DNA from: Opitutales bacterium
Lineage (GTDB): Bacteria > Verrucomicrobiota > Verrucomicrobiia > Opitutales > PNEW01
Assembly (NCBI GenBank): GCA_965219535.1
Contig: CBDCNV010000002.1
Coordinates: forward strand, 1,410,001-1,442,000
DNA length: 32,000 nt
Direction of reading: 5' to 3'
In this document: positions 1,157 to 31,270 of the stretch, piece after piece
Layout of the letters: each line of letters starts with the position of its first letter
Numbering within the stretch: the first letter of the stretch is position 1
Notes under the pieces: model-generated
The model's database searches: none
The model's input: the letters and a program-made list of their open reading frames with translations, nothing else
Told to the model about the DNA's origin: nothing
Made by a program: the position numbers and the translations under genes

Positions 1157-2272
1157 ATGAAGATAACTGAGATCAAACCCATCCTCACCGATCGTTATCT
1201 ACTTGTTCGTGTCTATACCGATGCTGGCATTGTGGGCAATGGCGAATCCGGTTGTTGGGCGCATCATAAACCAGTAGCTGAGACAATCAGGGAATTCAGC
1301 AATTACTTTATTGGCAAAGATCCCCGGTTAATCGAGCACCACCACCAGGTGTTGTCGCGGCAGACCCATTTTATGGGGGCGGTGATCAGTTCAGCGCTCA
1401 GCGCAATAGATATTGCGCTGTGGGATATTTTAGGAAAGTCGGTTGACCTGCCGGTGTATCAACTCCTTGGAGGAAAATGTCGCGAGAAGGTGCGGGTTTT
1501 TAATAACGTCAATGGCGATACTCTCGATGAGCGGGTCGCGTCGGCAAATCAAGCTGTTGTCGACGGGTTCACCTCATTGAGAATGACACCATTCTTCAGT
1601 GGGTTTGAAGAAAAGGATTCTACCGAGGTAATCACGACGGCCGTAGAGATGGTGGCTGCCGTGCGCGGTGCGGTTGGCGATAAGATTGACCTGGGTCTTG
1701 AGATCCATCGGAACCTTCAGCCCGATGAAGCGATCACCCTCGCGCAGGAACTGCGACCCTTTAAACTCAAATATTATGAAGACCCTCTCGCGCCCGAATG
1801 CAATGAAGCCCTTGAATATATCGCGCGTCAAATTGACATCCCGATGGCTGTTGGTGAACGCAGTTACAATCTGTTTCAATTTAAGGAACTGATTGATAAA
1901 AAAATCGCGTCGTTTATTCGTCCTGACGTGTCTCTCGCGGGTGGCTTTACCCAGGTGAAAAAAATCGCGGGGATTGCGGAGTCTGCTTTTGTGCAAATAT
2001 TTCCTCACCTCATGGGCAGCCCGGTTAACAATGCGGCTTTCACCCATTTAGCCGCGGCCATTCCCAATTATTATGTAATGGAATCGAATGCCCATTCCGA
2101 TGAACAATTGTCGCTCGTCGATAATCCCTTTCAAGTGTGTGACGGTTATCGGGAAATTCCAGACCGCCCCGGCATCGGCGTAGAAATAGATGAAGCCCGG
2201 TGTGAAAAGACACCCTTTGTCGGCCGTCAAATTTCAGGGAGTTTCCATGAGGATGGTTCCGTTGCGCATTGA
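1157..2272 (+). CDS. Enolase-superfamily enzyme (mandelate racemase/muconate lactonizing family, sugar-acid dehydratase-like)
   Basis: ORF 1121..2272. Start moved to ATG 1157 (MKITEIKPILTDRYLLVRV...), preceded by GGAG at 1148-1151 and 11 nt after the SDR stop, so probably the same operon. N-terminal capping domain plus barrel with acidic-ligand segments (LEIHRNL, YYEDP, VGERS) typical of this superfamily. Substrate unknown. Confidence 0.85.
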   Translation: MKITEIKPILTDRYLLVRVYTDAGIVGNGESGCWAHHKPVAETIREFSNYFIGKDPRLIEHHHQVLSRQTHFMGAVISSALSAIDIALWDILGKSVDLPVYQLLGGKCREKVRVFNNVNGDTLDERVASANQAVVDGFTSLRMTPFFSGFEEKDSTEVITTAVEMVAAVRGAVGDKIDLGLEIHRNLQPDEAITLAQELRPFKLKYYEDPLAPECNEALEYIARQIDIPMAVGERSYNLFQFKELIDKKIASFIRPDVSLAGGFTQVKKIAGIAESAFVQIFPHLMGSPVNNAAFTHLAAAIPNYYVMESNAHSDEQLSLVDNPFQVCDGYREIPDRPGIGVEIDEARCEKTPFVGRQISGSFHEDGSVAH

Positions 2273-2278
2273 ATATGA

Positions 2279-2307
2279 GTCAAAAGTCGAAGGTCTAAAG
2301 TCGAAAG
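2279..2307 (+). repeat. GTCGAAR heptamer array (C module)
   Basis: GTCAAAAGTCGAAGGTCTAAAGTCGAAAG. Begins 6 nt after the enolase-family stop. Confidence 0.8.
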
Positions 2308-2322
2308 CGTGGGAGAAGAATA

Positions 2323-2339
2323 GTGAACAGTAAACAGTG
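2323..2339 (+). repeat. GTGAACA/GTAAACA heptamer array (A module)
   Basis: GTGAACAGTAAACAGTG, abutting G-element copy 2. Confidence 0.8.
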
Positions 2340-2367
2340 TACCGAGGGTATATCCCGACATCTTCCA
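2339..2367 (+). repeat. G-element copy 2
   Basis: GTACCGA GGG-tatat-CCC GACATCTTCCA. Confidence 0.9.
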
Positions 2368-2374
2368 CGGTGGA

Positions 2375-2395
2375 CAGTGAACAGTAAACAGTGAG
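2375..2395 (+). repeat. A module
   Basis: CAGTGAACAGTAAACAGTGAG. Confidence 0.8.
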
Positions 2396-2420
2396 GGATG
2401 CTATCCGTATATCCATATTA

Positions 2421-2652: not shown

Positions 2653-2687
2653 GGAGGGAATGTTCGGTTCACCGAACACCTCCCTCC
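2653..2687. repeat. Strong hairpin enclosing the stop codon of the SBP-permease gene
   Basis: GGAGGGA..GTTCGG-ttca-CCGAAC..TCCCTCC, a two-part stem of about 13 bp. No U-tract follows on the gene strand (GTCAAAAAG array instead). Confidence 0.7.
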
Positions 2688-5600
2688 ATCCTAATCCGCG
2701 GATCGAGCCACATGAGCAGAAGGTCGCTGACAAGGGTGCCTAAGACTCCGAACAGGCTGAGTACCATGAGCATCGATCCGGCCAGATACATATCTTCTAT
2801 CATCAGGGCATCGAGCAATAACGGGCCGACGGTGGGCAAGCTGAGCACCATCGCGACAATGGCACCGCCGGAGACGAGTTGGGGAAAGATCGCGCCGATA
2901 CTGGAGATAAACGGATTGAGCGCCAGGCGCACAGGATATTTAATCAACACTTTAAAAGGTCGCAACCCTTTGGCTATCGCGGTAATAACGTAAGGTTTTC
3001 TCAACTCGTCGAGCAAGTTGCCACGCATGACCCGGATCATACTCGCGGTTCCCGTGACACCGAGGACGACAATGGGCACCCAGATGTGCTGCAGCAGGTC
3101 GACAATTTTTCCTCTTGTCCACTCCGGTTGGACAGCGTACTCGGGTGAATACAGACCCGTGACATTAATGCCCAGATACTTCGCACTCCAATAGAGCAGA
3201 ATCAGTGCGAGGAGAAAACTGGGAACACTCATCCCGATGAAACCGATCAACGTAAATAGATAATCACCCAAGGTATATTGGCGAACGGCCGAATAGATGC
3301 CGATGGGCAGAGCGACAGCCCAGGTAAATAAAATGGTGCCAAGTGAAATAAGAAAAGTAAGCAGGATGCGATCGCCTACCACTTCATTGACGGTGTTTTG
3401 GTTCTCCATCGACAATCCCATGTGACCCTGCAGTAATCCCTGGTCTTTCTTTTCAAAGGAAGTAAACCAGTAAAGCCCAAGCCAGCGGGCGTACTGCTCG
3501 GTGATGGGCTCATCGAGGTTAAAAATCTCGCGCAGCTTATCGACTTCTTTCATATCCGAGCTGCTGCCTCTTAACTGCAGCTCCATGATTTTAGTATCGA
3601 TGAAATTCCCCGGTGGCAGCTGGATGATTACAAAAGAAATGACCGAGATGATGAGCAGCGACGGAATCATGATGAGCAACCGCCTTCCGATGTAAGGGTG
3701 CCGCACCCCGGTCATTATTATACCGCAGACAAAAACACCGATAAACAAATACTTAATCAGTAATCCCAGGCGATTAACGCTTTTCGATTCACCTTCGGCG
3801 TCAACCAGACCGTAAGGGGCAGGAGTGATTTCGATTAATTCTTTTTTTATCTGCGCAATCGTTCCAGGAGAATGATAAGAATCTTCGAAATAGTAGGTTT
3901 CTAACCCCGCGTGGGCGGGTGGGTGGAAGCGATTACCATAAAACGCGAGGCGGGGAACATTTTTAAAATCGTTTTTGACCACGACCGGGTGCGGCGGCGC
4001 AGTACCTATATTGATCGACCAGACATTTTCTGCCGCGATGTCGAATATTTTATGGAATTGTTCACGTTGCGCTTCACGGGTGGTCGCACCGAAAGCGGAT
4101 TCGAGCAGTATCATCGATCGCCGTAAGGGATGATCGATCGGGGGCTCGATCCCGCCGAATTGAGTGGCTTCAGGATTGCCTGAAAGTCCCCCTCCTAAAT
4201 ACCACTTAAAATAGCCGAATGCTTGAAGACCTGTTAACCCAACAAATCTTTCAGGTCCCACAAGAGGATTGAATTCACTTTCGGTGGCCCAAATGGAAAT
4301 TTCCACTTGGCGCGAATTTTGTTCTGCGGAAAAGAGCGGTAGCGAAGGCTGACGTCGGATAGCGCGAATACCGACACGGCCCCAATCTTCGATGACGAGC
4401 TCAGTAGGCCCCTCGTCTTCCCCCTCCGGCAATGAATAATGCCAGGTCATACGCGTGCCGTCCTTAAACGTGCGGTAACCTTCTGAATCCCTGCCGGTGA
4501 GACCTATCGCATCGAGTATTTGATTGGCCTGTTCGGGCGCATAATCGGTAAAACTTTTATGCAGTTTTTCATGGTGAAAATACGATTCCCTTCCGGGTGA
4601 TAACTGCGCGGGCTCTCCCATCCCATTATAAACGATATCGATGATTTGCCGGCGGTTGATGGCGAGGGAGAGCGCCTGGCGGAAACGCTTGTCTATTAAA
4701 AGATCATGTTTCATCTGGGTGACCGGATTATCGGGATCGACCAAAAGGTTCATATTCGCATGGATGAGGTAACGCGAGCGTGTAGCGGGAAACCAGTGAT
4801 ACACTTCGTAATCATTGTCTTCTCGTTGTGACATGAGAAGGGTGTATGAGAGTTCCATATTCCAAATTAAGAAGGTGATCGCCCCGCTGGCAGCTGATAC
4901 AGGTATCAGATTATAATTTTTTACTTCGTAAAATAATTGATCCACATAGGGGAGCTGATTGCCTTCGGTATCAACGGCCCAGTAGTAGGGATTGCGGACA
5001 AAAACCTGGGGAGGGTTGGCGTTATAAGTACGATAGATCCAGGGCCAAAGTCGCGGGATTGCGGGGTTTGACCAAAGTTTCAATAAATAGTAGAGCCTAC
5101 TGCGCGACGGCAATCTTCTCTCCTCCAGGGTAGCCTCGATGAGCGCGTCATCGCCGATTACAGGGTTATACTTTTCCAGGTAATGACGGGGCGCGCAATA
5201 TTCAGTGGCTCGAGCCAGGCGTTCAAGAAATGTTCCATAAGGTTGAGGGAAAACGAACTTTACGGTGTGATCATCGATTTTTATAACATCCCCTCTCTTA
5301 CCGCCTATATCCATCCAATCGGCAGTTTCCATCCCAAGGATATTAAAAGGTATTTCTTTTTCCCACCAGTAGAGGATATCATCGACGGTAAAAGGGTGTC
5401 CATCAGACCATTTCATCCCTTTTCGCAGGTAAAAGGTCCATTCCCTCTTGTCGGGACTGGATTCCCAACCCTTGGCGACGTGAGGCACGATCGGGTAACC
5501 GAGCGCAGAGAAGCGCACTAGCGTGGATCCGGCATAATATCCCTTGACTCCACCCACTTCTGTTGGGGAACCCACCACTTGCAACCAGGTACCGCCATAG

Positions 5601-5953
5601 TTGCCGATACTGTCCACTCCTTTGAGCACCACCGGCTCGGGCCCCACACGTTCAGCAACCGGTGGCAGTTTTCCCTCCTTTACCAAGTCAGTAAAAAGGG
5701 GTGATTCGGATTTTGGATACCACGTGCTCGATTCACCCACACTGTAGTCAACATCCTGTTGAATTTGAAAAATATCATCCTCGGTGAAACTCACATCTCT
5801 TGAATTATTTATGAATTCAATTTCCTCCGGGTCATAGTAAATGGGTTCCTCTTCCAGATCCGGTTTTAAGATATCACTCCAGAGATATAGAAAACCGAAA
5901 AAGCAACAACCCGTGAGGAAGAGAAGAAGGAAGGTTTTTAAAATTTTATTCAT
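2669..5953 (-). CDS. Fused ABC-transporter protein: N-terminal TM anchor + family-5 (Dpp/Opp-type) solute-binding domain + linker TM + DppB/OppB-type permease
   Basis: 1094-aa ORF. It has a TM helix at the N-terminus (FLLLFLTGCCFFGFLYLW) followed by an SBP_bac_5-like core (VPHVAKGWESSPDKREWTFYLRKGMKWSDGHPFTVDD). An extra TM helix follows (LIKYLFIGVFVCGIIMTGV, about nt 3700-3775). The canonical DppB-like permease then starts at RRLLIMIPSLL, with EAA-loop region YVITAIAKGLRPFKVLIKYPVRLALNP and C-terminal LDPRIR. Confidence 0.9.
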   Translation of the reverse strand: MNKILKTFLLLFLTGCCFFGFLYLWSDILKPDLEEEPIYYDPEEIEFINNSRDVSFTEDDIFQIQQDVDYSVGESSTWYPKSESPLFTDLVKEGKLPPVAERVGPEPVVLKGVDSIGNYGGTWLQVVGSPTEVGGVKGYYAGSTLVRFSALGYPIVPHVAKGWESSPDKREWTFYLRKGMKWSDGHPFTVDDILYWWEKEIPFNILGMETADWMDIGGKRGDVIKIDDHTVKFVFPQPYGTFLERLARATEYCAPRHYLEKYNPVIGDDALIEATLEERRLPSRSRLYYLLKLWSNPAIPRLWPWIYRTYNANPPQVFVRNPYYWAVDTEGNQLPYVDQLFYEVKNYNLIPVSAASGAITFLIWNMELSYTLLMSQREDNDYEVYHWFPATRSRYLIHANMNLLVDPDNPVTQMKHDLLIDKRFRQALSLAINRRQIIDIVYNGMGEPAQLSPGRESYFHHEKLHKSFTDYAPEQANQILDAIGLTGRDSEGYRTFKDGTRMTWHYSLPEGEDEGPTELVIEDWGRVGIRAIRRQPSLPLFSAEQNSRQVEISIWATESEFNPLVGPERFVGLTGLQAFGYFKWYLGGGLSGNPEATQFGGIEPPIDHPLRRSMILLESAFGATTREAQREQFHKIFDIAAENVWSINIGTAPPHPVVVKNDFKNVPRLAFYGNRFHPPAHAGLETYYFEDSYHSPGTIAQIKKELIEITPAPYGLVDAEGESKSVNRLGLLIKYLFIGVFVCGIIMTGVRHPYIGRRLLIMIPSLLIISVISFVIIQLPPGNFIDTKIMELQLRGSSSDMKEVDKLREIFNLDEPITEQYARWLGLYWFTSFEKKDQGLLQGHMGLSMENQNTVNEVVGDRILLTFLISLGTILFTWAVALPIGIYSAVRQYTLGDYLFTLIGFIGMSVPSFLLALILLYWSAKYLGINVTGLYSPEYAVQPEWTRGKIVDLLQHIWVPIVVLGVTGTASMIRVMRGNLLDELRKPYVITAIAKGLRPFKVLIKYPVRLALNPFISSIGAIFPQLVSGGAIVAMVLSLPTVGPLLLDALMIEDMYLAGSMLMVLSLFGVLGTLVSDLLLMWLDPRIRMEGGVR

Positions 5954-5983
5954 CTAAAGGAATAAGCTCATTGTGAGCTTATT

Positions 5984-6010
5984 CAGTGAACAGTAAACAG
6001 TGAACAGTGG
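5984..6010 (+). repeat. A module upstream of SBP-permease gene 1
   Basis: CAGTGAACAGTAAACAGTGAACAGTGG. Confidence 0.85.
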
Positions 6011-6037
6011 AGAATCAGTGTTAAATTTTAGTTGAGA

Positions 6038-6130: not shown

Positions 6131-6185
6131 TACCTAAAACTTGACACTTAAAACCTAACACGCGCGATGACTTCCGTCATCGCGC
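6131..6185 (-). terminator. Hairpin containing the stop codon + U-rich heptamer array 3' of the SBP-permease paralogue
   Basis: GCGCGATGA-cttccg-TCATCGCGC (6162-6185, 9-bp stem; the stop codon is in one arm). On the transcript it is followed by GUGUUAGGUUUUAAGUGUCAAGUUUUAGG. Confidence 0.45.
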
Positions 6186-9100
6186 TCCTCCTTCCATCCT
6201 AATCCTTGGATCGAGCCACATGAGCAAGAGGTCACTGACGAGGGTGCCTAAGACACCGAGCAGGCTGAGTACCATGAGCATCGATCCGGCCAGATACATA
6301 TCTTCTTTCATCAGGGCATCGAGCATTAAAGGCCCGACCGTTGGAAGGCTGAGCACCATCGCTACTATGGCGCCTCCTGAGATGAGTTGGGGAAAGATTC
6401 CACCGATGCTGGAAATGAATGGATTGAGCGCCAGGCGCACGGGATATTTCAGCAACAGCTTAAAGGGTCGCAGCCCCTTGGCCATCGCAGTAATGACATA
6501 AGGTTTTTTCAGCTCGTCCAACAGGTTACCGCGCATGACACGGATCATACCCGCGGTTCCAGTGACACCCAGAACGACAATCGGCACCCAGATGTGCTGC
6601 AACAAGTCGACAATCTTTCCTCGGGACCATCCAGGTTCAATCGCGTATTCGGGTGAAAATAGACCCGAGATATTAATCCCAAGATATTTCCCACTCCAAT
6701 AAAGTAGAATCAACGCAAGAAGAAAGCTGGGAATGCTCATCCCGATAAATCCGATCAAGGTGAAAAAATAATCACTCAAAGTATACTGGCGAACAGCTGA
6801 ATAGATGCCAATCGGCAAAGCGATCGCCCAGGTAAATAAAATCGTACCGAGTGAAATAAGAAAAGTGAGAAGGATGCGATCCCCAACCACTTCGTTGACC
6901 GTGTTCTGGTTCTCCATCGATAATCCCAGGTGACCCTGCAGTAAGCCCTGGTCTTTTTTTTCAAAGGAAGTAAACCAATTAAGGCCGAGCCAGTGCGCGT
7001 ATCGTTTAGCGATGGGCTTATCGAGGAGAAAGATCTCGCGCAGCTCTTCGATCTCATCGCTATTTATTTGACCTCCTTTTAATTGCAGCTCCAGGATTTT
7101 GGTCTCAATGAAATTCCCCGGAGGAAGCTGGATGATTACAAAAGAGATGACCGAGATGATAAGAAGGGTCGGGCCCAAAATGAGCAGCCGCCTTCCTATG
7201 TAGGGGTGCCTTACTCCAATCATTACCACTCCGCAGGTGAAAACACCGATAAATAAATACTTAATCAATTTTGCCAGGTGAATAACACTTTTCGATTTGC
7301 TCTTATCCTCCACTAGACCGTAAGGAGCGGGGGTTATTTCGAGTATTTCCTTTTTGATCTGAGCAACGGCTCCAGGTGATTCATCAGACTCTTCGAAGTA
7401 GTAGGTTTCTATTCCAGCCTGGGATGGCGGATTAAAGTAATTGCCATAGAATGCATTGCGCGGAATATTTTTAAAACCGTTTTTGACTACAACCGGGTGT
7501 GGTTGCGAGGTGCTTATATTGATCGACCAGACATTTTCCGCCGCAATGTCGAACACTTTATTGAAATGCTCACGTTGCGCTTCGCGCGTGGCCGCACCGA
7601 AAGCTGCTTCGGCTATTTCCATCGATCGCCTCATGGGATGATCGATCGGGGGCTCGATTCCTCCGAGTTGAGCAGCATCAGGATTGCCTGAAAGTCCACC
7701 TCTCAAATACCAGATATAGTAGCCGTATGCTTGGAGTCCCGTTAACCCGATAAAACGCGAGTATCCCAAAATAGGGTTGAATTCACTTTCTGAGGGCCAA
7801 ATGGAAAATTCCAATTGGCGTGATGTTTGTTTAAAGTAAAAAGAGAAAGCGCTGGCTGTTGTCGTATAGCGCGAATACCGACACGAGCCCAATCTTCAAT
7901 GATGAGCTCAGTCGGCCCTTCGAGCTCCCCCTCCGGGAGTGTAAAATTCCAGACCATGCGCGTACCATCCTTAAATGTGCGGTAGCCTCGCGCATCCCTA
8001 CCGGTTAGCCCTATCGCATCAAGCAGTTGATTGGCCCGGTCGGGCGCATAGTCGGTAAAGCTTTTATGTAATTTTTCATGGTGGAAAAACGATTCCCTCC
8101 CTGGTGATAACTGCGCGGGTTCCCCCACCCCATTGAATACGATGTCGATAATTTGCTGGCGATTGATGGCAAGGGAGAGCGCCTGGCGAAAGCGCTTGTC
8201 TATTAATAGATCATGTTTCATTTGGGTAACCGGATTATCAGGGTCGACCCTAAGATTTTGATTCGGATAGATGAGAAACCGCGAGCGTGTAGCAGGAAAC
8301 CAGTGATACACTTCATAGTCGTTTGTTTCGCGTTGTGACATGAGCAGGATATAGTTTAAATCCATACTTTCAAAAATCTTAAAGGTAATGGCCCCGTTGG
8401 CCGCTGCGATGGGAATCAAATTATAGTTTTTAACGTCGACAAATAATTGGTCCACATAGGGAAGCTGATTACCTTCGGTATCGACTGCCCAGTAGTAGGG
8501 ATTGCGGACAAATACCTGGGGAGGGTTGGCTTTATAAGTATGATATATCCAGGGCCATAGCCGTGGGTGTTCGGGATTGTTTGTTAATTTTAATATTACG
8601 TATAGGCTTCTACGCGATGGCAGTCTTCTCGCCTCGAGGGTAGCTTCGATGAGAGAATCATCACCGAGTTTCGGATGGTATTTTTCCAGGTAATGCCGCG
8701 GTGAGCAGAAATCACTGGATTTAGCCATGAAATCAAGAAACGATCCATAAGGTTGAGGAAAAATGAACTTTACGGTATAATCATCAATTTTTACAGTTTC
8801 TCCCACCTTTCCCCCCACTTTCATCCACTGGGGCGGTAAACTTCCCGGATATACAGGATCGGTTTCTCCATATAGACGGTAAAGGATATCGTCGGCAGTA
8901 AAAGGGTGACCATCGGACCACTTCATGCCTCGGCGCAAATAAAAAACCCATTCCCTCTTGTCGGGACTGGATTCCCAACCCTTGGCCACATGAGGCACAA
9001 TCGGGTAACCGAGCGGAGACCAGCGAACAAGTGTGGAACCTGAAGAGAAGGAAACAATTTTACGTATATCATTTTGTGATCCTGCCACTTCAAACCAGGT

Positions 9101-9463
9101 GCCGCCATAGCTACCGATACCTTCCACACCTTTAAACACTACCGGCTCGGGTCCTACCCGCTCTGCCACCAGGGGTAATTTGCCCTCGGCTACAAGTTCA
9201 GATAAGAGGGGTGACTCGGCTTGTGGATACCACGACGCGGTTTTCCCTTCACTGTAATCAACATCCAGCTGAATTTTGAAAAGATCATTTTCGGTGAAAC
9301 TCACATCTCTAGAATTTTCTATAAATTCAATTTCTTCCGGGTCATAGTAAATGGGTTCCTCTTCCAGATCCGGTTTTAGGATATCACTCCAAAGATAAAG
9401 AAATCCGAAAAAACAAAAACCCGTGAGGAGGAGGAGAAGGAAGGTTTTTAAAATTTTAATCAT
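6177..9463 (-). pseudogene. Frameshifted tandem paralogue of the fused SBP-permease gene
   Basis: ORFs 7742..9463 and 6177..7892 are collinear with the 1094-aa neighbour (roughly 75-80% aa identity by eye) but lie in different frames. The frame switch maps to the A5 run at 7838-7842 (T5 on the coding strand). Adding one T restores ...LFYFKQTSRQLEFSIW..., matching ...LFSAEQNSRQVEISIW... in the paralogue. The 3287-nt span is not a multiple of 3. This could be a real pseudogene, a homopolymer sequencing error or a slippage site. Confidence 0.8.
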
Positions 9464-9494
9464 CTAAAGGAATAAGCTCATCATGGGATGAATT

Positions 9495-9520
9495 CAGTGA
9501 ACAGTAAACAGTGAACAGTG
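9495..9520 (+). repeat. A module upstream of SBP-permease gene 2
   Basis: CAGTGAACAGTAAACAGTGAACAGTG. An inverted partner lies at 9740-9770. Confidence 0.85.
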
Positions 9521-9662
9521 AGAAAGTAGTGTCTAAGGTCAAAGGTCGGGGATGAATGGATGGTAGGAATGATGGAAGATTGAAATTCCCTTCGGTTCAA
9601 CACCAATTCTCCATACTTCCATACATCCAATATTCCATTTAAACCGCTGAACGGTGAGTCTA

Positions 9663-9694: not shown

Positions 9695-9770
9695 CCTTAA
9701 CCTAAATCTTAACACTTAAAACGCGCGAAAACGCTTCCCCACTGTTCACTGTTTACCGTTCAATGTTCAC
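9695..9770 (-). repeat. Composite A-H-D module copy 4 (inverted)
   Basis: Reverse complement reads GTGAACATTGAACGGTAAACAGTGAACAGTGGGGAAGCGTTTTCGCGCGTTTTAAGTGTTAAGATTTAGGTTAAGG. Confidence 0.8.
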
Positions 9771-9780
9771 TAATTTTCTT

Positions 9781-9807
9781 CCTTTTATGACCTTTTGACT
9801 TTTTGAC
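9781..9807 (-). repeat. B module
   Basis: CCTTTTATGACCTTTTGACTTTTTGAC, followed by hairpin GCGCGC-tgat-GCGCGC. Confidence 0.8.
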
Positions 9808-9823
9808 GCGCGCTGATGCGCGC
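9808..9823. repeat. GC hairpin GCGCGC-tgat-GCGCGC
   Basis: Perfect 6-bp stem next to a B module. Confidence 0.7.
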
Positions 9824-9945: not shown

Positions 9946-10827
9946 ATGTCTGAATATTCATTATCTGAGAAACAGATCAATCGGTATCAATCAGAAAGCC
10001 ACCTGGTGATTCCGTCGGTGTTTGGCAAAGACGTATTAGGGGAAATTGATCAAACAATTCGCGACTTGACCGACCAGGCCATCGAATCGGGTCAAGCGGA
10101 TAAAATCATGGAGCTGGAACCTCAACAGGTGAATGGTCATTACGTGCCGCGACGTATTTATAACCCGTTTGATCAGCATGAATGTTTTCGGAAACTGGCA
10201 ACCGACGATCGCATTATGGACCGTATCGGATCACTGATCGGCCCAAACATTGCATTGCACCACAGTAAGTTGAATATGAAGCCGGGGAAAGTCGGCTCAG
10301 TAGTCGAGTGGCATCAGGACCTGGCGTATTTTCCTCATACCAACGACGACCTGGTGACGACGCTGATCTATCTCGATGATGCTACGGAAAAAAACGGCTG
10401 CCTTCAGGTGCTGCCACGCCAACATACTCATCACTTCGATCACCGCTTACCTGACGGCAAGTTTGCGGGCATGATCACTGAATCGATCGACGAGAATCAA
10501 TTTGGAAAACCGGTCGCTCTGGCCGCGGAAGCAGGCAGTATAATTTTAATGCATGTCAACACACCGCACAGTTCGCTCCCGAATACTTCCGACAAGCCCC
10601 GCCGTACAATAATTTTTGAATACCGTGCCGCAGACGCGTTCCCGATTTACTCCGGTATTTATGTCCACGAATTAGAGATGCACGCCCATCATCTTCGCGG
10701 TGAACGATCACTTCATGCCCGTTTTGGTAATCTCGTGCCTATGATCCCGGACATTCCAGGAGACGCTCAAAAGAAGTCCCTTTACAAACTCCAGGAAGAA
10801 GCACGATCCCAACAAGAGGCATCTTAA
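9946..10827 (+). CDS. Phytanoyl-CoA dioxygenase (PhyH) family Fe(II)/2-oxoglutarate oxygenase, paralogue 1
   Basis: 293-aa ORF with HxD iron motif VEWHQDLAYFPH and distal His region ILMHVNTPHSSLPNTSDKPRR, typical of the PhyH family. Confidence 0.85.
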   Translation: MSEYSLSEKQINRYQSESHLVIPSVFGKDVLGEIDQTIRDLTDQAIESGQADKIMELEPQQVNGHYVPRRIYNPFDQHECFRKLATDDRIMDRIGSLIGPNIALHHSKLNMKPGKVGSVVEWHQDLAYFPHTNDDLVTTLIYLDDATEKNGCLQVLPRQHTHHFDHRLPDGKFAGMITESIDENQFGKPVALAAEAGSIILMHVNTPHSSLPNTSDKPRRTIIFEYRAADAFPIYSGIYVHELEMHAHHLRGERSLHARFGNLVPMIPDIPGDAQKKSLYKLQEEARSQQEAS

Positions 10828-10875: not shown

Positions 10876-10957
10876 AGAGATCAAAAAAAGAGAAAGTCAG
10901 AAGACCAGACAACCGGTTCAGCAGTTCTTCACTGACGCTCTCGACACTTCACTTTCC

Positions 10958-22246: not shown

Positions 22247-22269
22247 TCAAAAGGTCAAAAAGTAAACAC
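22246..22269 (+). repeat. B module 3' of the MlrC-like gene
   Basis: GTCAAAAGGTCAAAAAGTAAACAC, preceded by the GC hairpin at 22232-22246. Confidence 0.8.
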
Positions 22270-22280
22270 TCCGGTCTCAC

Positions 22281-22312
22281 CACTTTCGACTTTCGACCTT
22301 TGACTTTAGACC
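22281..22312 (-). repeat. C module
   Basis: CACTTTCGACTTTCGACCTTTGACTTTAGACC on the plus strand. Confidence 0.85.
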
Positions 22313-22364
22313 ATTCAATCTCTGATTGAATGTCCCACCGTTCAGCGGTTCTGGTCCTCCGGTT

Positions 22365-22398: not shown

Positions 22399-22406
22399 AC
22401 CGCCTT

Positions 22407-23288
22407 TCAGGCTTTCCGGTTTTCCGGACCTCCGGTTCCCTGGTAATCATACTTCTTGTTCCGGCTGATGTAGTCGATCGGCCCTTTCACGAACTTTGTT
22501 GTGGTTTTCAAGGGGCTCCCTTCGAAAAGGGCTTCCGACCCTTTTAGAAATCGGAGCGAATTATTGGTATGCCACCAACGGACAAAGTGGACCATGGCGA
22601 TCATCGGCCGTGGGGTGTCGGTGTGATTGGGCATGCCGCGATGCCAGAGGCGCATGTCGCGGATGACTACGCCCCCAGCGGGGACGTTGGGTTGGAGGGG
22701 CTCGACTTCGGCGCGCCGTCTCGCCTCGTCTTCGGGCGGGATCTTGATATCTTTTTCATCGAACGAGCGGGTGGTATCGAGGTGGGTGCCGGGCCAGATC
22801 TCGGTGCTGCCATTTTCTGGGGTCATGTCGACTACCGGGACATTGACGACGAGGGCATAAGCGGGGGTAGCCGTTTTGAGACCGGGCCACAGCTGGCCGT
22901 AGTCGACGTGCAACGGTTGCTGAGTCTCGTTCGGCAGGCAGGTGTTACCGCTGTACATGTTGTTTTTCACCCCTTCGCCAAGCGTGGCCCTCGTGATTTG
23001 GACGACGAAGTCATTGAAGAGGACATCGCGGAAGAGGTAAGGGGGAAACGGTGGCGGGTCCTGTTGCAAGTGACCGTCGTTGAATTGAAAAGGGACATTG
23101 TCGAGTGCGAGGATGTCGGCGACATCAGCGACCATGCGCTCGCCCAGGGCCTCGATGTGTTTTGAGGAAATGACATCATGGAGAATAACGAAGCCGTCCT
23201 CGCGAAGCGCTTTAAGAGTAAGTTTTAAATGTTGGGCATCGAAGCTCTGGCTCTTTCGTTCATCCTCGCTGAGGTGTAATTCTAACAT
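22407..23288 (-). CDS. PhyH-family Fe(II)/2-oxoglutarate oxygenase, paralogue 3
   Basis: 293-aa ORF. HxD in QPLHVDYG; distal His in MRLWHRGMPNHTDTPR. GC-rich relative to most neighbours. Confidence 0.75.
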   Translation of the reverse strand: MLELHLSEDERKSQSFDAQHLKLTLKALREDGFVILHDVISSKHIEALGERMVADVADILALDNVPFQFNDGHLQQDPPPFPPYLFRDVLFNDFVVQITRATLGEGVKNNMYSGNTCLPNETQQPLHVDYGQLWPGLKTATPAYALVVNVPVVDMTPENGSTEIWPGTHLDTTRSFDEKDIKIPPEDEARRRAEVEPLQPNVPAGGVVIRDMRLWHRGMPNHTDTPRPMIAMVHFVRWWHTNNSLRFLKGSEALFEGSPLKTTTKFVKGPIDYISRNKKYDYQGTGGPENRKA

Positions 23289-23318: not shown

Positions 23319-23357
23319 CATGTCGATCTTTTTGTAATTGAATAGGTGTCTGGTGTC
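23319..23357 (-). repeat. L module upstream of PhyH paralogue 3
   Basis: CATGTCGATCTTTTTGTAATTGAATAGGTGTCTGGTGTC (36 of 39 identical to the other copy), 30 nt from the start codon. Confidence 0.8.
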
Positions 23358-23394: not shown

Positions 23395-23412
23395 AGAAGC
23401 GCTAGCGCGCGT
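23384..23412 (+). repeat. N module
   Basis: GGTGTCGAGGGAGAAGCGCTAGCGCGCGT. Confidence 0.8.
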
Positions 23413-23422
23413 GTTTAAAAAA

Positions 23423-23451
23423 GTCTAACGTCGAAGGTCGAAAGTCGAAGG
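23423..23451 (+). repeat. C module
   Basis: GTCTAACGTCGAAGGTCGAAAGTCGAAGG. Confidence 0.85.
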
Positions 23452-23465
23452 CAGGGGAGGGGATT

Positions 23466-23535
23466 AGTAAACAGTGAACAGTGAACAGTGAACAGTGAAA
23501 GAGCGCTGACGCGCGCGTTAAGATTTAGGTTAAAG
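23466..23535 (+). repeat. Composite A-H-D module copy 2
   Basis: AGTAAACAGTGAACAGTGAACAGTGAACAGTGAAAGAGCGCTGACGCGCGCGTTAAGATTTAGGTTAAAG. Confidence 0.85.
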
Positions 23536-23568
23536 ATATCGGTATCGAAATCGGGATCGGGTGTCGAG
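23535..23568 (+). repeat. P module
   Basis: GATATCGGTATCGAAATCGGGATCGGGTGTCGAG. Confidence 0.65.
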
Positions 23569-25402: not shown

Positions 25403-26854
25403 ATGAAGTCCAAAACCATCGCGTCAGTCGTCCTGCTACTGAGCGTTTTCGCAATGCCGCTAACCGCCACCGATCCCATCGCCATAGACTCGCGGCGGGA
25501 ACTGTTTATTGATCATCATTTGATCGGATCGCTCAACGGTGTGCGCCTCGTGTTGCATCGCCCGCAACCGCGCGAAATCGTCTTCGAGTTCGATCAGCCC
25601 TGGGAGGGACTCTACAGCGGGTACGAGACCGTGCTCAAAGACGGCGAGACCTACCGGTTCTATTATCGGGGGATGCCCGAAGCAAAACACGATCTCGATA
25701 CGGAAGTCATCTGTGTCGCGGATAGCAAAGACGGTATTCACTGGACGCGGCCCAAACTGGGCATATACGAAGTCCGCGGCACGAAAGACAACAACGTGGT
25801 GCTGGCGCGTAATCGCGGCTGCCACAACCTCGCACCGTTCATAGACACCAATCCGAATTGCCCGGCCGAAGAACGGTATAAAGCGCTGGGCGGGACCGGC
25901 GAACCGGGTCTGCTGGCCTTTGTATCGGCCGACGGTCTGCACTGGAAGCAACTCCAGGCGGACCCTGTAATCACCAAAGGCGCATTTGATTCCCAGAACA
26001 ACGCATTCTGGTCCGTCAGCGAAAAACAGTACGTTTGCTATTTCCGAGTCTTCCGGGATGGAATTCGTTGGATTGCGCGTACGACGTCGATGGATTTCGT
26101 CCACTGGACGGAACCGATCGACCTGGAGCTTGGCGGCCAGCCCCGCGAACACCTCTACACGAACCAGTTCGACCCCTACGTCCGAGCTCCGCACATCTAT
26201 CTGGGACTTCCTACGCGTTACCTGCCCGGGCGTCGTGTATTGACGGACGAGGAAGCCAAAGGGATCGGCACACCCACGAAATGGAACTACGTCGATGATA
26301 GTACGGACATCCTGCTTGCATCAGCACGCGGTGGTGACAACTTCCAGCGCACATTCATGGAGGCCTTTGTTCGGCCGGGAGCAGACCTGCAAAACTGGAC
26401 GTCACGAGCAAATTACGCGGCGCGCGGCATCGTGCAAACGGGCGAACGAGAATTGTCCCTCTTCGTGAAGCACCACTCCGGCTATCCCTCGAATCACGTC
26501 CAGCGCTATGTGATCCGACCGGACGGCTTTGTCTCCGTGCAAGCTCCTTACAACGGTGGCGAGTTGATCACCAAACCGTTCACCTTCACCGGCGCAAAGT
26601 TGTCGCTTAACTACGCCACTTCCGCTGTAGGTGGGATATTCGTCGAGATTCAGACTCCCGACGGTAAACCAATCGAAGGATTTGCACTTGCGGACTGCTT
26701 GGAAATGATCGGAGACCGGATATACCACACCGTAAACTGGAAAAAAGGTTCGGATGTGAATTCCCTGGCCGGCAAGCCCGTCCGAGTGAAGTTCGCAATG
26801 AAAGACGCCGACCTCTACTCGATGCAATTCACTAGCAGGGGAGGGACAAAGTGA
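25403..26854 (+). CDS. Secreted protein, predicted beta-propeller glycoside-hydrolase-like fold (function unknown)
   Basis: ORF 25382..26854. Start moved to ATG 25403 (MKSKTIASVVLLLSVFAMPLTA signal peptide). Repeated segments such as DQPWEG...YRFYYRG, SKDGIHWTRP, SADGLHWKQ and SMDFVHWTEP resemble blades of GH32/43-type propellers. The family assignment is from pattern memory only. Confidence 0.6.
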   Translation: MKSKTIASVVLLLSVFAMPLTATDPIAIDSRRELFIDHHLIGSLNGVRLVLHRPQPREIVFEFDQPWEGLYSGYETVLKDGETYRFYYRGMPEAKHDLDTEVICVADSKDGIHWTRPKLGIYEVRGTKDNNVVLARNRGCHNLAPFIDTNPNCPAEERYKALGGTGEPGLLAFVSADGLHWKQLQADPVITKGAFDSQNNAFWSVSEKQYVCYFRVFRDGIRWIARTTSMDFVHWTEPIDLELGGQPREHLYTNQFDPYVRAPHIYLGLPTRYLPGRRVLTDEEAKGIGTPTKWNYVDDSTDILLASARGGDNFQRTFMEAFVRPGADLQNWTSRANYAARGIVQTGERELSLFVKHHSGYPSNHVQRYVIRPDGFVSVQAPYNGGELITKPFTFTGAKLSLNYATSAVGGIFVEIQTPDGKPIEGFALADCLEMIGDRIYHTVNWKKGSDVNSLAGKPVRVKFAMKDADLYSMQFTSRGGTK

Positions 26855-26874
26855 ACGGTGAACAGTAAACAGTG
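26851..26874 (+). repeat. A module containing the stop codon of the preceding gene
   Basis: GTGAACGGTGAACAGTAAACAGTG. The TGA stop (26852-26854) is part of the first unit. Confidence 0.85.
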
Positions 26875-26902
26875 TACCGAGGGTATGTCCCGACATCTTC
26901 CA
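26874..26902 (+). repeat. G-element copy 11 (left end of MITE-like copy a)
   Basis: GTACCGA GGG-tatgt-CCC GACATCTTCCA. Confidence 0.9.
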
Positions 26903-27038
26903 TCCAGACCGAGCACCAAACATCAATTATCAAATCACAAATAAGCTCCAATGATTGAAATACCAATTCATGAAATAAATGAAAAGACAGTTTGGTTATT
27001 TATAATTGTAAATTGGATTTTATTTGAAATTTGTGATT

Positions 27039-27065
27039 GGGGGATGTCGGGCTTTGCCCTCGGTA
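27039..27065 (-). repeat. G-element copy 12 (right end of MITE-like copy a)
   Basis: Reverse complement reads TACCGA GGGC-aaa-GCCC GACATCCCCC. Confidence 0.85.
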
Positions 27066-27109
27066 GCTTTTTGTAATTTCTCGACTTGTCCTCGACTCCC
27101 CTGAACCCT

Positions 27110-27138
27110 GTACCGAGAGCGTAGCTCGACATCTTCCA
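27110..27138 (+). repeat. G-element copy 13
   Basis: GTACCGA GAGC-gta-GCTC GACATCTTCCA. Confidence 0.9.
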
Positions 27139-27149
27139 CCCTGAACCCT

Positions 27150-27177
27150 GTACCGAGGGTATATCCGACATCTTCCA
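27150..27177 (+). repeat. G-element copy 14
   Basis: GTACCGA GGG-tatat-CC GACATCTTCCA (one stem base missing). Separated from copy 13 by CCCTGAACCCTG. Confidence 0.85.
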
Positions 27178-28533: not shown

Positions 28534-28620
28534 AAGTATTTTTAAAAAAAAATGCCTATAAGCACAAACAGGTACTTTAACGTGTTAAATTTAAATAGGT
28601 TAGGACCTGTGTGGGGGGAT

Positions 28621-28646
28621 CAGTGAACAGTAAACGGTGAACAGTG
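28621..28646 (+). repeat. A module
   Basis: CAGTGAACAGTAAACGGTGAACAGTG. Confidence 0.85.
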
Positions 28647-28702
28647 GGAGAGTTGCGTGTTATTTCTAATGGAGATTATTATATTTCCCTGAACCCTGAA
28701 CC
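28639..28702 (+). repeat. Q module
   Basis: AACAGTGGGAGAGTTGCGTGTTATTTCTAATGGAGATTATTATATTTCCCTGAACCCTGAACC. Confidence 0.55.
28687..28702 (-). repeat. E module (C-strand)
   Basis: CCCTGAACCCTGAACC. Confidence 0.75.
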
Positions 28703-28825: not shown

Positions 28826-28885
28826 GTACCGAGGGCATAGCCCGCCTGTCGTCCATAGCCTTGTGCGACGGATGGACATCTTCCA
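28826..28885 (+). repeat. G-element copy 15, expanded (left end of MITE-like copy b)
   Basis: GTACCGA GGGC-ata-GCCC, then a 31-nt insert (GCCTGTCGTCCATAGCCTTGTGCGACGGATG, itself able to pair GTCCAT/ATGGAC), then GACATCTTCCA. Confidence 0.75.
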
Positions 28886-29015
28886 TTCAGACCGAGCACC
28901 AAACATCAATTATCAAATCACAAATAAGCTCCAATGATTGAAATACCAATTCATGAAATAAATGAAAAGACAGTTTGGTTATTTAATAATTGTAAATTGG
29001 ATTTTATTTGAAATT

Positions 29016-29041
29016 GGGGATGTCGGGCTTTGCCCTCGGTA
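29016..29041 (-). repeat. G-element copy 16 (right end of MITE-like copy b)
   Basis: Reverse complement reads TACCGA GGGC-aaa-GCCC GACATCCCC. Confidence 0.85.
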
Positions 29042-29109
29042 GTGATTTGATATTTTCTCGACTTCTCCCGGCATCTTCAACAGAGAAAATTATAAGTAAT
29101 TAAAAGAAG

Positions 29110-29137
29110 CGTGCTAGGGACAGCCCGCTCCACCTAA
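29110..29137 (+). repeat. O module, single copy upstream of the Gfo-AKR fusion gene
   Basis: CGTGCTAGGGACAGCCCGCTCCACCTAA vs 6088-6115 CGTGCTGGGACAGCCCGTTCCACCTAA. Confidence 0.8.
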
Positions 29138-29166
29138 AACCTAACACTGCGGGGCCGCGCACTTCA

Positions 29167-31167
29167 ATGAAAAACAAACTCAAGTGGGGTATCCTCGGAC
29201 CGGGGAGGATCGCAGATAAATTTGCTATTGGCGTGCGGGAATCTGCGCACAGTGAACTCATCGCGGTGGGAAGTCGCTCGCGCAAGCGGGCTGATAGTTT
29301 CGGAGATGCGCATGAGATTCCGAACCGCTACGGTTCCTATGAGAAACTCTTGGAGGACTCTGACGTCCATGCTGTATATATCGCTACGCCGCATCCTCTT
29401 CATGCCCTGTGGGCGATTCGAGCTGCGGAAGCGGGAAAACACATCCTCTGCGAAAAACCGATCGCAATCAACCACGCCGAGGCGATGGCCATCGTGGAGG
29501 CGGCATACAGGGGCGGTGTCTTTCTCATGGAGGCCTTCATGTATCGCTGCGCCCCTCAGACCGAGCGCATCGTCGAGCTGATTCAGGAAGGTGCGATTGG
29601 TGAGGTTCAAATGATCAAGGCGTCGTTTGGCTTTCATAGCCCCTACAATCTTGAGAGTCGAATTTTGAATAGAAATCTTGGAGGCGGGGGGATCCTGGAC
29701 ATAGGCTGTTACGCCGTGTCGATGGCTCGCCTGATCGCTGGTGTAGCTCGCGGGAAGGCTTTCGCCAACCCGATTAAGGTTGAAGCGTCGGGAAAGCTGG
29801 GTGACGAATCGAAGGTCGATGAGTATGCTGCCGCTCTCCTTACTTTCCCTGAAGACTTCATTGCCCAGGTGTCTACGAGTGTTCAGTTGAGTCAGGAGAA
29901 CACGGCGCAGATATTCGGGACGGAAGGGAACATACTCGTTCCCAATCCATGGACGGCAGCAAGCGGTGGCGGCCGTTGGTCCTTTACAGTCACGCGAACT
30001 TCAGGCGACGGTCCCGAGACGATTGAAGGCGACACTCCGAATTTGTACGGACTTGAAGCGGACAAAGTGGCCGAGGGTGTAGGGGCGGCGAAGAGGGAAT
30101 CACCCGCCATGAGCTGGGAAGATTCACTTGGGAACATGGAGACCCTGGACAGGTGGCGAGAAGCTATTGGTCTGGACTATCCGAAAGAAAGAATAACCTC
30201 CAAACGGCCCACCATTCACGGTCGGCCACTGAAAAAACTAACGGGCGCGCCCCTTACCTACGGACGGGTCGAAGGTATTGATAAACCCATATCCCGCCTC
30301 GTCATGGGAGTGGATAACCAGGAGAACCTGTCCCACGCCTCCATCATGTTTGATGATTTCATCGAACAGGGCGGCAACTGTTTCGACACCGCCTATATCT
30401 ACGGTCGCGGCATGCGGGAAAAGCTGCTCGGTCAGTGGATGAGAAATCGCGGCATCCGCGAAGATATCGTTCTTATCGTCAAGGGCTCACACAGTCCTCT
30501 TAACTTTCCGGAGTACGCCACAAAACAACTCTTCGAGAGCCTGGAGCACCTGCAGACCGACTACGCGGACATCTATTTTCTGCACCGGGACAATCTGGAT
30601 CTTCCTGCGGGGGATTTCGTCGAGGTTCTCAACGAACACTATCGAGCCGGACGCATTAAGGCATTTGGTGGATCCAACTGGACGACCGAACGCATCGACG
30701 AAGCCAACGCTTACGCCGATGAACATGGACTACAGCGGTTCACGGTGTGGAGCAACAACTTCAGCCTGGCGCGTATGGTCAATCCAGTCTGGGCCGGCTG
30801 CATTGCAGCTTCCGACTCGAAATCCCGGAAATGGTTAGAGAAGAATCAAATGCCACTCTTCCCCTGGTCGAGTCAGGCGCGTGGCTTCTTTACAGATCGC
30901 GCAGGGCCCGATAAACGGGACGACGAGCTCTTGGTCAGCAGTTGGTATTCAAAGGATAACTTTAAAAGACGCGAAAGAGCGATCGAGCTCGCTGAGAAAA
31001 AAGGCGTCCTCCCCATCAACATCGCGCTGGCCTACGTCCTCTGTCAGCCTTTCCCCACCTTCCCACTCTTCGGTCCGCGCGTCCTCAGTGAAACCCGCAC
31101 CTCCATCCCCGCCGTAAATATCTCCCTTACCCCCGAGGAACTCCAGTATCTAAATCTGGAAGCGTAA
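29167..31167 (+). CDS. Fusion protein: Gfo/Idh/MocA oxidoreductase (N-terminal half) + aldo-keto reductase (C-terminal half)
   Basis: 666-aa ORF. The N-terminal half has KWGILGPGRIADKF and the EKP motif (ILCEKPIA). The C-terminal half has AKR segments CFDTAYIYGRGMREKLLGQWM, IVLIVKG, DIYFLHRD and GGSNW. Confidence 0.85.
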   Translation: MKNKLKWGILGPGRIADKFAIGVRESAHSELIAVGSRSRKRADSFGDAHEIPNRYGSYEKLLEDSDVHAVYIATPHPLHALWAIRAAEAGKHILCEKPIAINHAEAMAIVEAAYRGGVFLMEAFMYRCAPQTERIVELIQEGAIGEVQMIKASFGFHSPYNLESRILNRNLGGGGILDIGCYAVSMARLIAGVARGKAFANPIKVEASGKLGDESKVDEYAAALLTFPEDFIAQVSTSVQLSQENTAQIFGTEGNILVPNPWTAASGGGRWSFTVTRTSGDGPETIEGDTPNLYGLEADKVAEGVGAAKRESPAMSWEDSLGNMETLDRWREAIGLDYPKERITSKRPTIHGRPLKKLTGAPLTYGRVEGIDKPISRLVMGVDNQENLSHASIMFDDFIEQGGNCFDTAYIYGRGMREKLLGQWMRNRGIREDIVLIVKGSHSPLNFPEYATKQLFESLEHLQTDYADIYFLHRDNLDLPAGDFVEVLNEHYRAGRIKAFGGSNWTTERIDEANAYADEHGLQRFTVWSNNFSLARMVNPVWAGCIAASDSKSRKWLEKNQMPLFPWSSQARGFFTDRAGPDKRDDELLVSSWYSKDNFKRRERAIELAEKKGVLPINIALAYVLCQPFPTFPLFGPRVLSETRTSIPAVNISLTPEELQYLNLEA

Positions 31168-31171
31168 GAGA

Positions 31172-31209
31172 GTGAACAGCCGTCGTCGCTTCGCTATGAC
31201 GTGCCAAGG
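31172..31209 (+). repeat. J module copy 2
   Basis: GTGAACAGCCGTCGTCGCTTCGCTATGACGTGCCAAGG. Confidence 0.75.
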
Positions 31210-31270
31210 TGAACAGTGAAAGAGCGCTTATGCGCGTGTTAAGTTTTAGGTGTTAAGTGTTAGGTTAGGG
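31209..31270 (+). repeat. Composite A-H-D module copy 3 (abuts IS copy 2)
   Basis: GTGAACAGTGAAAGAGCGCTTATGCGCGTGTTAAGTTTTAGGTGTTAAGTGTTAGGTTAGGG. Confidence 0.85.

Follow-up and report, generated by a model that had tools for sequence, protein, structure and literature searches.

Why do short tandem repeats between genes keep a fixed direction relative to those genes, and what reads that direction? The question is raised by a 32,000-nucleotide stretch of an Opitutales bacterium genome (GenBank assembly GCA_965219535.1, contig CBDCNV010000002.1, positions 1,410,001 to 1,442,000; the whole stretch is called the window here), in which nearly every spacer longer than ~170 nt is packed with tandem arrays of 7- or 8-nt units, as detected by Tandem Repeats Finder (TRF) together with a family scan. 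The first-pass annotation of the window described arrays that follow stop codons in the sense of the upstream gene and others that lie upstream of genes in the opposite orientation, and proposed that the arrays act at the RNA level as 3′ untranslated regions (3′-UTRs). These two remarks are halves of one symmetric rule: read GT-first, on the strand with more G than C (G>C), an array has its 5′ end toward the nearest gene, at stops and starts alike. As their 5′ ends lie toward genes, arrays converge inside spacers, giving the order (+)...(+)(−)...(−).

Orientation of arrays relative to genes

We kept the array families of the first-pass annotation, A (GTRAACA), B (GTCAAAAR), C (GTCDAAR) and D (GTKTTAR), and added E (GGGTTCA), G (GGTGTCG), A2 (GGTGAAC type), ATCG-rich arrays and AATTAGG arrays; the units fall into at least six families of 7 or 8 nt. 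By TRF the arrays are far above chance, with none expected in shuffles for a related pattern. A larger sample, referred to as the contig, comprised 46.7 kb rebuilt from a 99.9%-identical metagenome contig with database gene calls. Relatives were found by anchoring a search of a metagenome collection on a nested hairpin insert of 29 nt; among the loci returned, ~30 belong to relatives and have shared genes 82–96% identical in nucleotide sequence, and the family orientations were fixed before counting in these loci. The window proteins, including MlrC and adk, cluster at ≥90% identity with proteins of OY829953.1, a metagenome-assembled genome (MAG) labelled 'MAG: Opitutales bacterium' (4,492,227 bp), and the syntenic locus of this MAG (L188), with coding DNA 85–95% identical to the window, has the same array families, hairpins and inserts. 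These protein clusters and this synteny ruled out a cyanobacterial host, a first idea taken from the GCGATCGC motif; the cyanobacterial HIP1 octamer occurs only five times in the 32 kb.

The GT-first orientation of each family was chosen after inspection of the window, so that nine of nine agreements over four families are worth only ~1/32 on their own, and the window by itself is weak evidence; the rule was replicated in the relatives. Within the window, 26 of 29 arrays of families A–D have their 5′ end toward the nearest gene (P=1.5 × 10−5, scripted count), as have 39 of 44 in the contig (P=1.4 × 10−7); by nearest gene end, the counts in the contig are 25:1 at stops and 26:7 at starts. Twelve of 13 mixed-orientation spacers in the contig run strictly (+)...(+)(−)...(−), the lone exception being an ambiguous GGTGAAC-type array. 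Among the relatives, 68 of 82 arrays have their 5′ end toward the nearest open reading frame (ORF; P=1 × 10−9), at median distances of 15 nt from stops and 31 nt from starts. Arrays near stops were sense in 35 cases and antisense in six, and the reversed orientation upstream of genes was equally strong (33 antisense, 8 sense near starts); adjacent opposite-oriented arrays were convergent in 20 cases and divergent in none. Loci of relatives non-orthologous to the window gave 30 of 32 (P=2.5 × 10−7; stops 18:1, starts 12:1). With database gene calls, 23 of 29 arrays at L188 obey the rule; the six that do not are the far ends of long runs with a single orientation, and mixed spacers there are convergent in four of four cases.

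Pfam puts the gene content of the window at 23; the window encodes PhyH dioxygenases, Gfo/Idh/MocA oxidoreductases, two solute-binding-protein (SBP)/permease fusions, MlrC and others, and it carries two copies of an IS481-family insertion sequence (IS) element. Rfam 15 gave no match in the window at the gathering score, and a tRNA scan of the window found none. The nine arrays that had been assigned to stop codons are all present and GT-first in the gene sense; eight begin 0–21 nt past the stop, and the C array of PhyH-3 lies ~90 nt away rather than within a few nt. A hairpin stands between stop and array in four of the eight close cases, and in two of these it contains the stop codon itself. 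Two stop cases, at a xylose-isomerase-like and a HIBADH-like gene, add to the nine. The arrays on the stop side, with their hairpins and inserts, are listed here together with an E array at 11735–11773:

2279–2307 (+), C array, four GTCDAAR units, 6 nt past the stop TGA (2270–2272) of the enolase-family gene
2317–2397 (+), A array (GTRAACA) interrupted by SDR-a, a hairpin insert of 29 nt at 2339–2367
2620–2652 (−), B array, four GTCAAAAR units, 3′ of SBP-permease 1
2653–2687 (−), hairpin directly before this B array, its loop holding the SBP-permease 1 stop TGA (2671–2669)
6131–6163 (−), D array (GTKTTAR), from 6160, 3′ of SBP-permease 2
6162–6185 (−), GC hairpin enclosing the SBP-permease 2 stop TGA (6179–6177)
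10846–10875 (+), C array, 18 nt past the PhyH-1 stop (10825–10827)
10954–11010 (−), GC hairpin (10989–11010) and D array from 10988, 3′ of the adk-like gene (stop 11012–11010)
11735–11773 (+), E array, five GGGTTCA units, with an IS481-family element inserted at its 3′ end
13241–13301 (−), E array with an SDR-a insert (13253–13281), overlapping the xylose-isomerase-like stop TAG (13300–13298)
17066–17090 (−), GGTGTCG array past the stop of the HIBADH-like gene
22232–22268 (+), GC hairpin (22232–22245) and B array from 22246, past the MlrC stop (22228–22230)
22279–22317 (−), C array ~90 nt downstream of the PhyH-3 stop
22400–22427 (−), CCGGAAAR octamer array containing the PhyH-3 stop TGA (22409–22407)
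26846–26879 (+), A array whose first GTGAAC unit contains the TGA stop (26852–26854) of the propeller-like 490-aa gene, with SDR-a at 26874–26902
27098–27155 (−), E array carrying SDR-a inserts, in a convergent spacer on the side of OsmC
31170–31268 (+), A unit, SDR-b (31179–31205, 27 nt), A array, hairpin (31224–31235) and D array, past the Gfo-AKR stop (31165–31167), with the second IS481-family copy inserted at the 3′ end of the module

Arrays adjoin start codons as frequently as stop codons and at as short a range, in mirror orientation; they are present in all five divergent spacers of the window, and several arrays lie 7–31 nt from start codons. On the start side the window has:

307–333 (+), A2 array (GGTGAAC type) just upstream of the short-chain dehydrogenase gene
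5980–6013 (+), A array on the non-coding strand, 26 nt upstream of the SBP-permease 1 start
9492–9551 (+), A then C array in the left half of a divergent spacer, on the non-coding strand 28 nt upstream of the SBP-permease 2 start
9698–9823 (−), on the minus strand 5′ to 3′: hairpin (9808–9823), B, A, hairpin (9723–9734) and D; right half of the SBP-permease 2/PhyH-1 divergent spacer, directed away from PhyH-1
18189–18227 (+), GC hairpin and B array, left half of a divergent spacer
18309–18362 (−), hairpin and B array, right half of this spacer, predicted to form a long stem with the left B array (z=−3.8)
20483–20590 (+), composite of A array, GCGCTGACGCGC hairpin, D array and ATCG-type array, on the non-coding strand, 75 nt upstream of the transglutaminase-like gene
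23399–23565 (+), series of hairpin, C, A, hairpin, D and ATCG-type array in the divergent spacer PhyH-3/PhyH-4
28615–28648 (+), A array on the non-coding strand, 115 nt upstream of the TetR-family gene
29129–29150 (−), D array on the non-coding strand, 16 nt upstream of the Gfo-AKR start

The orientation rule was also followed outside this lineage, in a small multi-phylum sample. A scan of genome contigs for (GTGAACA)n arrays gave loci from many phyla, including many cyanobacterial genomes, the source genome not being among the matches listed; all figures for other phyla and for cyanobacteria in this text, and those pooled with them, are among the matches listed. At the multi-phylum loci, opposite-oriented pairs of A arrays were convergent in 23 of 23 cases. 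We then treated all TRF arrays of period 7 or 8 alike, irrespective of family, and oriented each by its G>C strand (the loci having been selected for carrying an A array, and one genome possibly supplying several), with these counts of the G>C strand leading away from the nearest ORF against toward it, and of opposite-oriented neighbours that are convergent against divergent:

This lineage: away from the nearest ORF 49:9, within 60 nt 34:3, neighbours 11:0
Other phyla: away from the nearest ORF 104:35, within 60 nt 84:18, neighbours 29:2
Cyanobacteria: away from the nearest ORF 116:43, within 60 nt 95:17, neighbours 36:1

Pooled, the neighbour pairs, a test that is independent of gene calls, were convergent in 76 cases and divergent in three. 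For arrays within 60 nt of an ORF, G>C predicted the orientation 135:26 at stops and 78:12 at starts and was the best single predictor, purine excess, A>T and keto skew all being weaker. Translation punctuation, namely outward stop codons and the absence of inward start codons, was rejected as the basis of the polarity, with 95:53 and 38:40 against those G>C counts, and the B family contradicts it. General spacer composition was likewise rejected, as array-free flanks in cyanobacteria and other phyla carry no outward G>C skew. An orientation test specific to the A family at the cyanobacterial loci gave no bias (25:25), whereas the family-blind test was biased. Near-perfect palindromes of the form (GTGAACA)n-loop-(TGTTCAC)n, always in that order, were seen between genes of Acidobacteriota, Chloroflexota, Gemmatimonadota, Saprospiraceae and Proteobacteria (loci L013, L015, L018, L032, L043, L072, L078 and others).

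Anatomy and turnover of the modules

Arrays are joined to short GC-rich hairpins in a regular manner. Most hairpins are GCGC...GCGC stems of 12–24 nt; B, D and some C arrays usually begin right at such a hairpin, at a GCGC|GT junction, A arrays usually stop just before one (CAGTGAAAGA|GCGC), and the G-run GGGGGAG often terminates arrays. The arrays are predicted to be unstructured, with folding confined to the small hairpins. Long imperfect hairpins formed by composite modules of the A-hairpin-D-ATCG type were rejected, their folding z-scores of −1.4 to +0.9 being no better than those of shuffles; spacers with convergent arrays of the same or similar families are predicted to fold into a long stem (z=−3.8 and −3.4), and the PhyH-1/adk spacer gave no such folding. 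The first-pass annotation was right that a U-rich tail behind a hairpin is peculiar to D arrays. Of these modules, the adk-like hairpin with its D array is the only one that passes a simple terminator scan and scores as a classical terminator; the other hairpin-D modules roughly fit the definition of a terminator as a GC-rich stem of ≥5 bp directly before a U-rich tract, and hairpin-B, hairpin-C and A modules do not. TTGAC motifs in antisense B arrays were, by eye, not accompanied by a properly spaced −10 element. A likeness of A and B units to the V(D)J heptamer and nonamer (CACAGTG, ACAAAAACC) was dismissed as coincidence.

Family use differs between strands: by hand tally, A and C arrays are mostly on the plus strand (18:4) and E and G arrays mostly on the minus strand (3:9), with A tending to flank the left side of a spacer and E/G the right side, and this strand dependence may be a replication-strand effect. 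A2-type arrays occur at window positions 307–333 and contig positions 707–738, 1945–1974 and 40953–40979; by eye, their units seem to hold nearly equal numbers of G and C.

Smaller elements are nested within the arrays. SDR-a is a 29-nt hairpin element, GTACCGAG-N10-GACATCTTCCA, whose stems co-vary in a compensatory manner (GGG/CCC, GAGC/GCTC, GGAC/GTCC); its insertion site in A arrays is fixed (..CAGT|GTACC..), it also lies within GGGTTCA arrays, and 11 of its 14 copies in the contig are on the plus strand regardless of the polarity of the host array. SDR-b (GCCGYCG..CGCTATGRCGTGCC, ~27 nt) is nested within A, B or D arrays and also occurs in the Opitutales MAG. The IS481-family element has four copies in the 46.7 kb, and all four lie with the same element end (..GG|TACAACCAGGACATGG) directly against the 3′ end of a module (E, D, D and ATCG-type). 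Their positions are:

SDR-a, window 2339–2367, 2524–2552, 13145–13173 (−), 13253–13281, 16952–16980 (−), 26874–26902 and 27110–27138
SDR-b, window 18252–18278 and 31179–31205; also L037 (~4895–4925), L153, L176 and L188
IS481-family copies, window ~11770–13140 and from 31269 past position 32000; the other two in the flanking contig

The arrays behave as minisatellites, with copy-number change by slippage and fast gain, loss and swap of modules while polarity is retained. Between the window and the 99.9%-identical contig there are four substitutions and three indels, and two of the indels are changes in array copy number: the contig has one more AATTAGG unit where the upstream sulfatase gene ends (window 59) and two more B octamers past MlrC (22245); the third, at 18930, adds 9 nt to a coding repeat of the contig. 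In the relatives, spacers are remodelled though genes stay 82–95% identical. Upstream of the transglutaminase-like gene, one relative has a hairpin and B array in place of the A-hairpin-D-ATCG module found here, with equal orientation and distance, and the MlrC/PhyH-3 spacer, 176 nt long here (hairpin-B+ | C−), reaches 510 nt in the MAG (G+ B+ A+ D+ | C− G− A− C−), the additional modules being correctly oriented on each side. Gene cassettes are gained or lost at array spacers as well, MlrC being absent in one relative and OsmC-TetR-Gfo-AKR in the MAG.

Further features of the locus were recorded. A conserved 20-nt motif, ATGTCGATCTTTTTGTAAT, lies at window 20440–20462 and 23322–23344, 35–60 nt upstream of the transglutaminase-like and PhyH-3 starts, and is kept in relatives in which the adjoining arrays are swapped; as it is retained despite array replacement, it may be part of a promoter. 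SBP-permease 2 (6177–9463, −) consists of two overlapping ORFs, 6177–7892 and 7742–9463, and its paralogue SBP-permease 1 (2669–5953) is a single 1094-aa fusion, so either a frameshift or a true split is involved; the paralogues have the upstream A array and downstream hairpin layout in common. The ORF at 18522–19367 (+), without a Pfam match, carries Glu/His/Pro-rich coding tandem repeats of 15–54 nt (18654–18989) that are polymorphic between strains, its protein being 281 aa here and 350 aa in the MAG. A dispersed AT-rich repeat of 200 nt (26892–27091 and 28875–29068, 92% identical), bordered by GGGGATGTCGGGCTTTGCCCTCGGTAG hairpins, has more copies in the flanking contig.

What might read the polarity

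The orientation of the arrays is probably under selection: a rule that is symmetric about genes and survives full sequence turnover is most likely a selected one. Since transcription is the only gene-relative polar reader of a spacer, we propose it as the reader, and our tentative explanation, drawn from sequence patterns, is that the modules, a lineage-wide set, may be polar boundary elements read by transcription exiting a gene. Read outward, a module would present a gene-proximal hairpin and then a G-skewed, mostly purine-rich tail, which together could form a polar boundary that ends or blocks exiting RNA, namely sense read-through at the 3′ end of a gene and antisense or divergent RNA at its 5′ end; read inward, as part of an mRNA leader, the same module would be harmless. 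Arrays 7–31 nt from starts must be crossed by the gene's own mRNA, so that only a barrier acting outward fits them. The terminator-like hairpin with a D array supports an outward boundary. In vitro, transcription blockage by G-rich purine tracts is strictly orientation-dependent, requiring the G-rich purine strand to be the non-template strand (PMC3561996), and comparable heptamer arrays in Xanthomonas coincide with transcript starts or ends more often than controls do (PMC4692102).

Several observations weigh against such boundaries. The tails of B, C and A arrays are A-rich rather than U-rich and, as they are not homopurine, a block through R-loops would be weak; most GC hairpins have only 4–6 bp. 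As classical terminators or promoters the modules were rejected, the site counts in the window not being above those of shuffles and a single module qualifying. Arrays are equally common in divergent and convergent spacers, which is unusual for terminators; they also turn over rapidly and put up with nested inserts and IS elements, as dispensable DNA would. A2 units (GGTGAAC or CGTGAAC), one base apart from the A unit (AGTGAAC), have the opposite polarity to A, in four of four cases by eye in the contig and in six of eight in the relatives. Finally, beyond the source contig and L188, ORFs were called crudely, by taking the longest ones.

Nearly as likely as the outward boundary is that the arrays are selfish or neutral modular repeats whose orientation is filtered by selection. 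Here the modules would be junk comparable to REP doublets forming hairpins (REPINs), themselves built from repetitive extragenic palindromic (REP) elements, or to short tandemly repeated repetitive (STRR) sequences, spread by slippage, duplication, recombination and small mobile inserts; new modules would copy the orientation of their neighbours, and the wrong orientation near genes would be purged by purifying selection. Copy number that is polymorphic between near-identical strains, family replacement and large length changes at orthologous spacers, the alike behaviour of many unrelated unit sequences, and the SDR-a and SDR-b inserts and four IS481 insertions within or at the ends of modules are all consistent with this possibility, and REP elements likewise favour one dimer orientation and adjoin ORF 3′ ends (PMC3733652). 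Such a model must, however, assume an unspecified harm from one orientation at stops and from the mirror orientation at starts, element-specific insertion is at odds with a G>C rule that spans unrelated families and phyla, and the 46.7 kb contain no RAYT-like (REP-associated tyrosine transposase) or other dedicated enzyme.

The 3′-UTR role put forward in the first-pass annotation, in which the arrays would act on the upstream gene's mRNA by terminating or stabilising it or by binding protein, is quite unlikely as a full account. What stands is the orientation rule at stops, with eight of the nine arrays 0–21 nt past them in sense and the 35:6 count in relatives, and an RNA role is possible, the hairpin and D array being terminator-like; it leaves unexplained the mirror rule at starts (33:8 in relatives, 26:7 in the contig) and the arrays in five of five divergent window spacers. 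A single G-rich heptamer had this geometry, too, in the work of Rehm et al. (2015), so a function in 3′-UTRs only is insufficient.

We consider it very unlikely that the arrays are insulators acting inward, in which the G-poor, C>G strand read toward the gene would load Rho and stop untranslated RNA entering the gene. The inward strand of nearly every family has at most ~14% G with C ≥ G, and G>C is the best polarity predictor, as this would have it. Cyanobacteria, however, are not known to possess Rho; as they follow the rule just as strongly (95:17 within 60 nt), the Rho-based version fails. Arrays 7–31 nt from starts would, moreover, load Rho on the gene's own leader, arrays span just 20–40 nt, and the B family is rich in U, not in C. 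A role at the DNA level, as binding platforms or as recombination substrates for shuffling cassettes between spacers, is similarly improbable: gene content of relatives differs exactly at array-filled spacers, genes are flanked by arrays in inverted orientation and the 12-mer GCGCTGACGCGC recurs, but the indels do not end at simple junctions of one array with another, the arrays have no linked recombinase, and recombination does not predict a gene-relative G>C polarity in many phyla.

Returning to outward-acting elements, a general law of bacterial genomes, of which the Opitutales arrays would be one instance and by which 7–8-nt intergenic repeats adjoin gene ends, both starts and stops, with their G>C strand outward through an orientation-dependent interaction of G-skewed repeats with transcription, seems rather unlikely. 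Because it crosses unrelated units and Rho-less cyanobacteria, such an interaction would be protein-independent; stable RNA:DNA hybrids serving as polar insulators of transcription units would be an example.

Relation to known repeats

The modules share features with several known systems. Some recall intrinsic terminators in placing a GC hairpin right after the stop and then a U-rich D array (adk-like gene, SBP-permease 2, Gfo-AKR), though a simple terminator definition fits one module only; against the likeness, the tails of B, C and A arrays are rich in A, and such modules also lie antisense beside start codons. STRR sequences, the cyanobacterial heptamers reportedly described by Mazel et al. 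in 1990, are likewise dispersed intergenic tandem heptamers in several families, and the A unit (GAACAGT) is one base off STRR3 (CAACAGT); here the host belongs to the Opitutales, and the hairpin junctions and the polarity rule lie outside the STRR definition. Small dispersed repeats (SDR) nested in Nostoc heptamer arrays were reportedly described by Elhai et al. in 2008; the 27–29-nt SDR-a and SDR-b hairpins resemble them in their fixed site inside arrays and compensatory stem changes, with other sequences in another phylum, a likeness that concerns the inserts and not array orientation. In the searches run, we found no literature on such arrays in Verrucomicrobia and no statement of a general G>C rule.

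The TAACTGA heptamers of Beggiatoaceae, cyanobacteria and Bacteroidetes, for which MacGregor (2015) proposed a translational role (PMC4679880), are also intergenic direct repeats with a strong bias in position and orientation relative to ORFs and with indels in 7-nt steps between strains; they comprise one unit, mostly directed toward the start codon and ending 1 nt before it, whereas Opitutales arrays point away from genes at both ends. REP, bacterial interspersed mosaic element (BIME) and REPIN sequences are small intergenic hairpin repeats near ORF 3′ ends, and REPs are probably transcribed (PMC3733652). The dominance of one inverted-dimer orientation among REPs is found here too (adjacent pairs 20:0 in relatives, 12 of 13 mixed spacers in the contig). 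REPs, however, are single 20–40-bp palindromes with a GTAG or CGTC tag, the GTAG type being linked to RAYTs, whereas the Opitutales elements are mostly unstructured tandem arrays. The GTAG tag is absent from their hairpins, CGTC arises only by accident where B and C arrays form the junction GCG|CGTC|AAAA, and no RAYT (an IS200-like tyrosine transposase) was found in the 46.7 kb examined.

A further comparison is with tandem heptamers that are over-represented in the intergenic DNA of some bacterial genomes, for which Rehm et al. (2015) described G-rich arrays in two Xanthomonas genomes and Nostoc PCC 7120 without finding a function (PMC4692102). [quoted passage not shown] They differ in that the Xanthomonas and Nostoc units are of GGGNATC type with tracts of three or more G that form quadruplexes, four units sufficing for one, whereas the families here, at least six, lack G-tracts, with a G-run in GGGTTCA only, and are joined to GC hairpins, and in that the former are under-represented between divergent genes, where Opitutales arrays are abundant. 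If true genome-wide, the G>C rule would give a handle on a directional process at transcription-unit borders and would be of practical help in annotating where genes end and where operons begin and stop. Since the orientation rule is strict, symmetric and kept through sequence turnover, the question can be put to the test by comparing the two orientations of a module. Bacterial repeats of this kind are known but unexplained, and the Opitutales arrays are an unusually elaborate variant of them; in this marine lineage of polysaccharide degraders the locus is unusually rich, with six or more families, junctions to hairpins and inserts nested in arrays.

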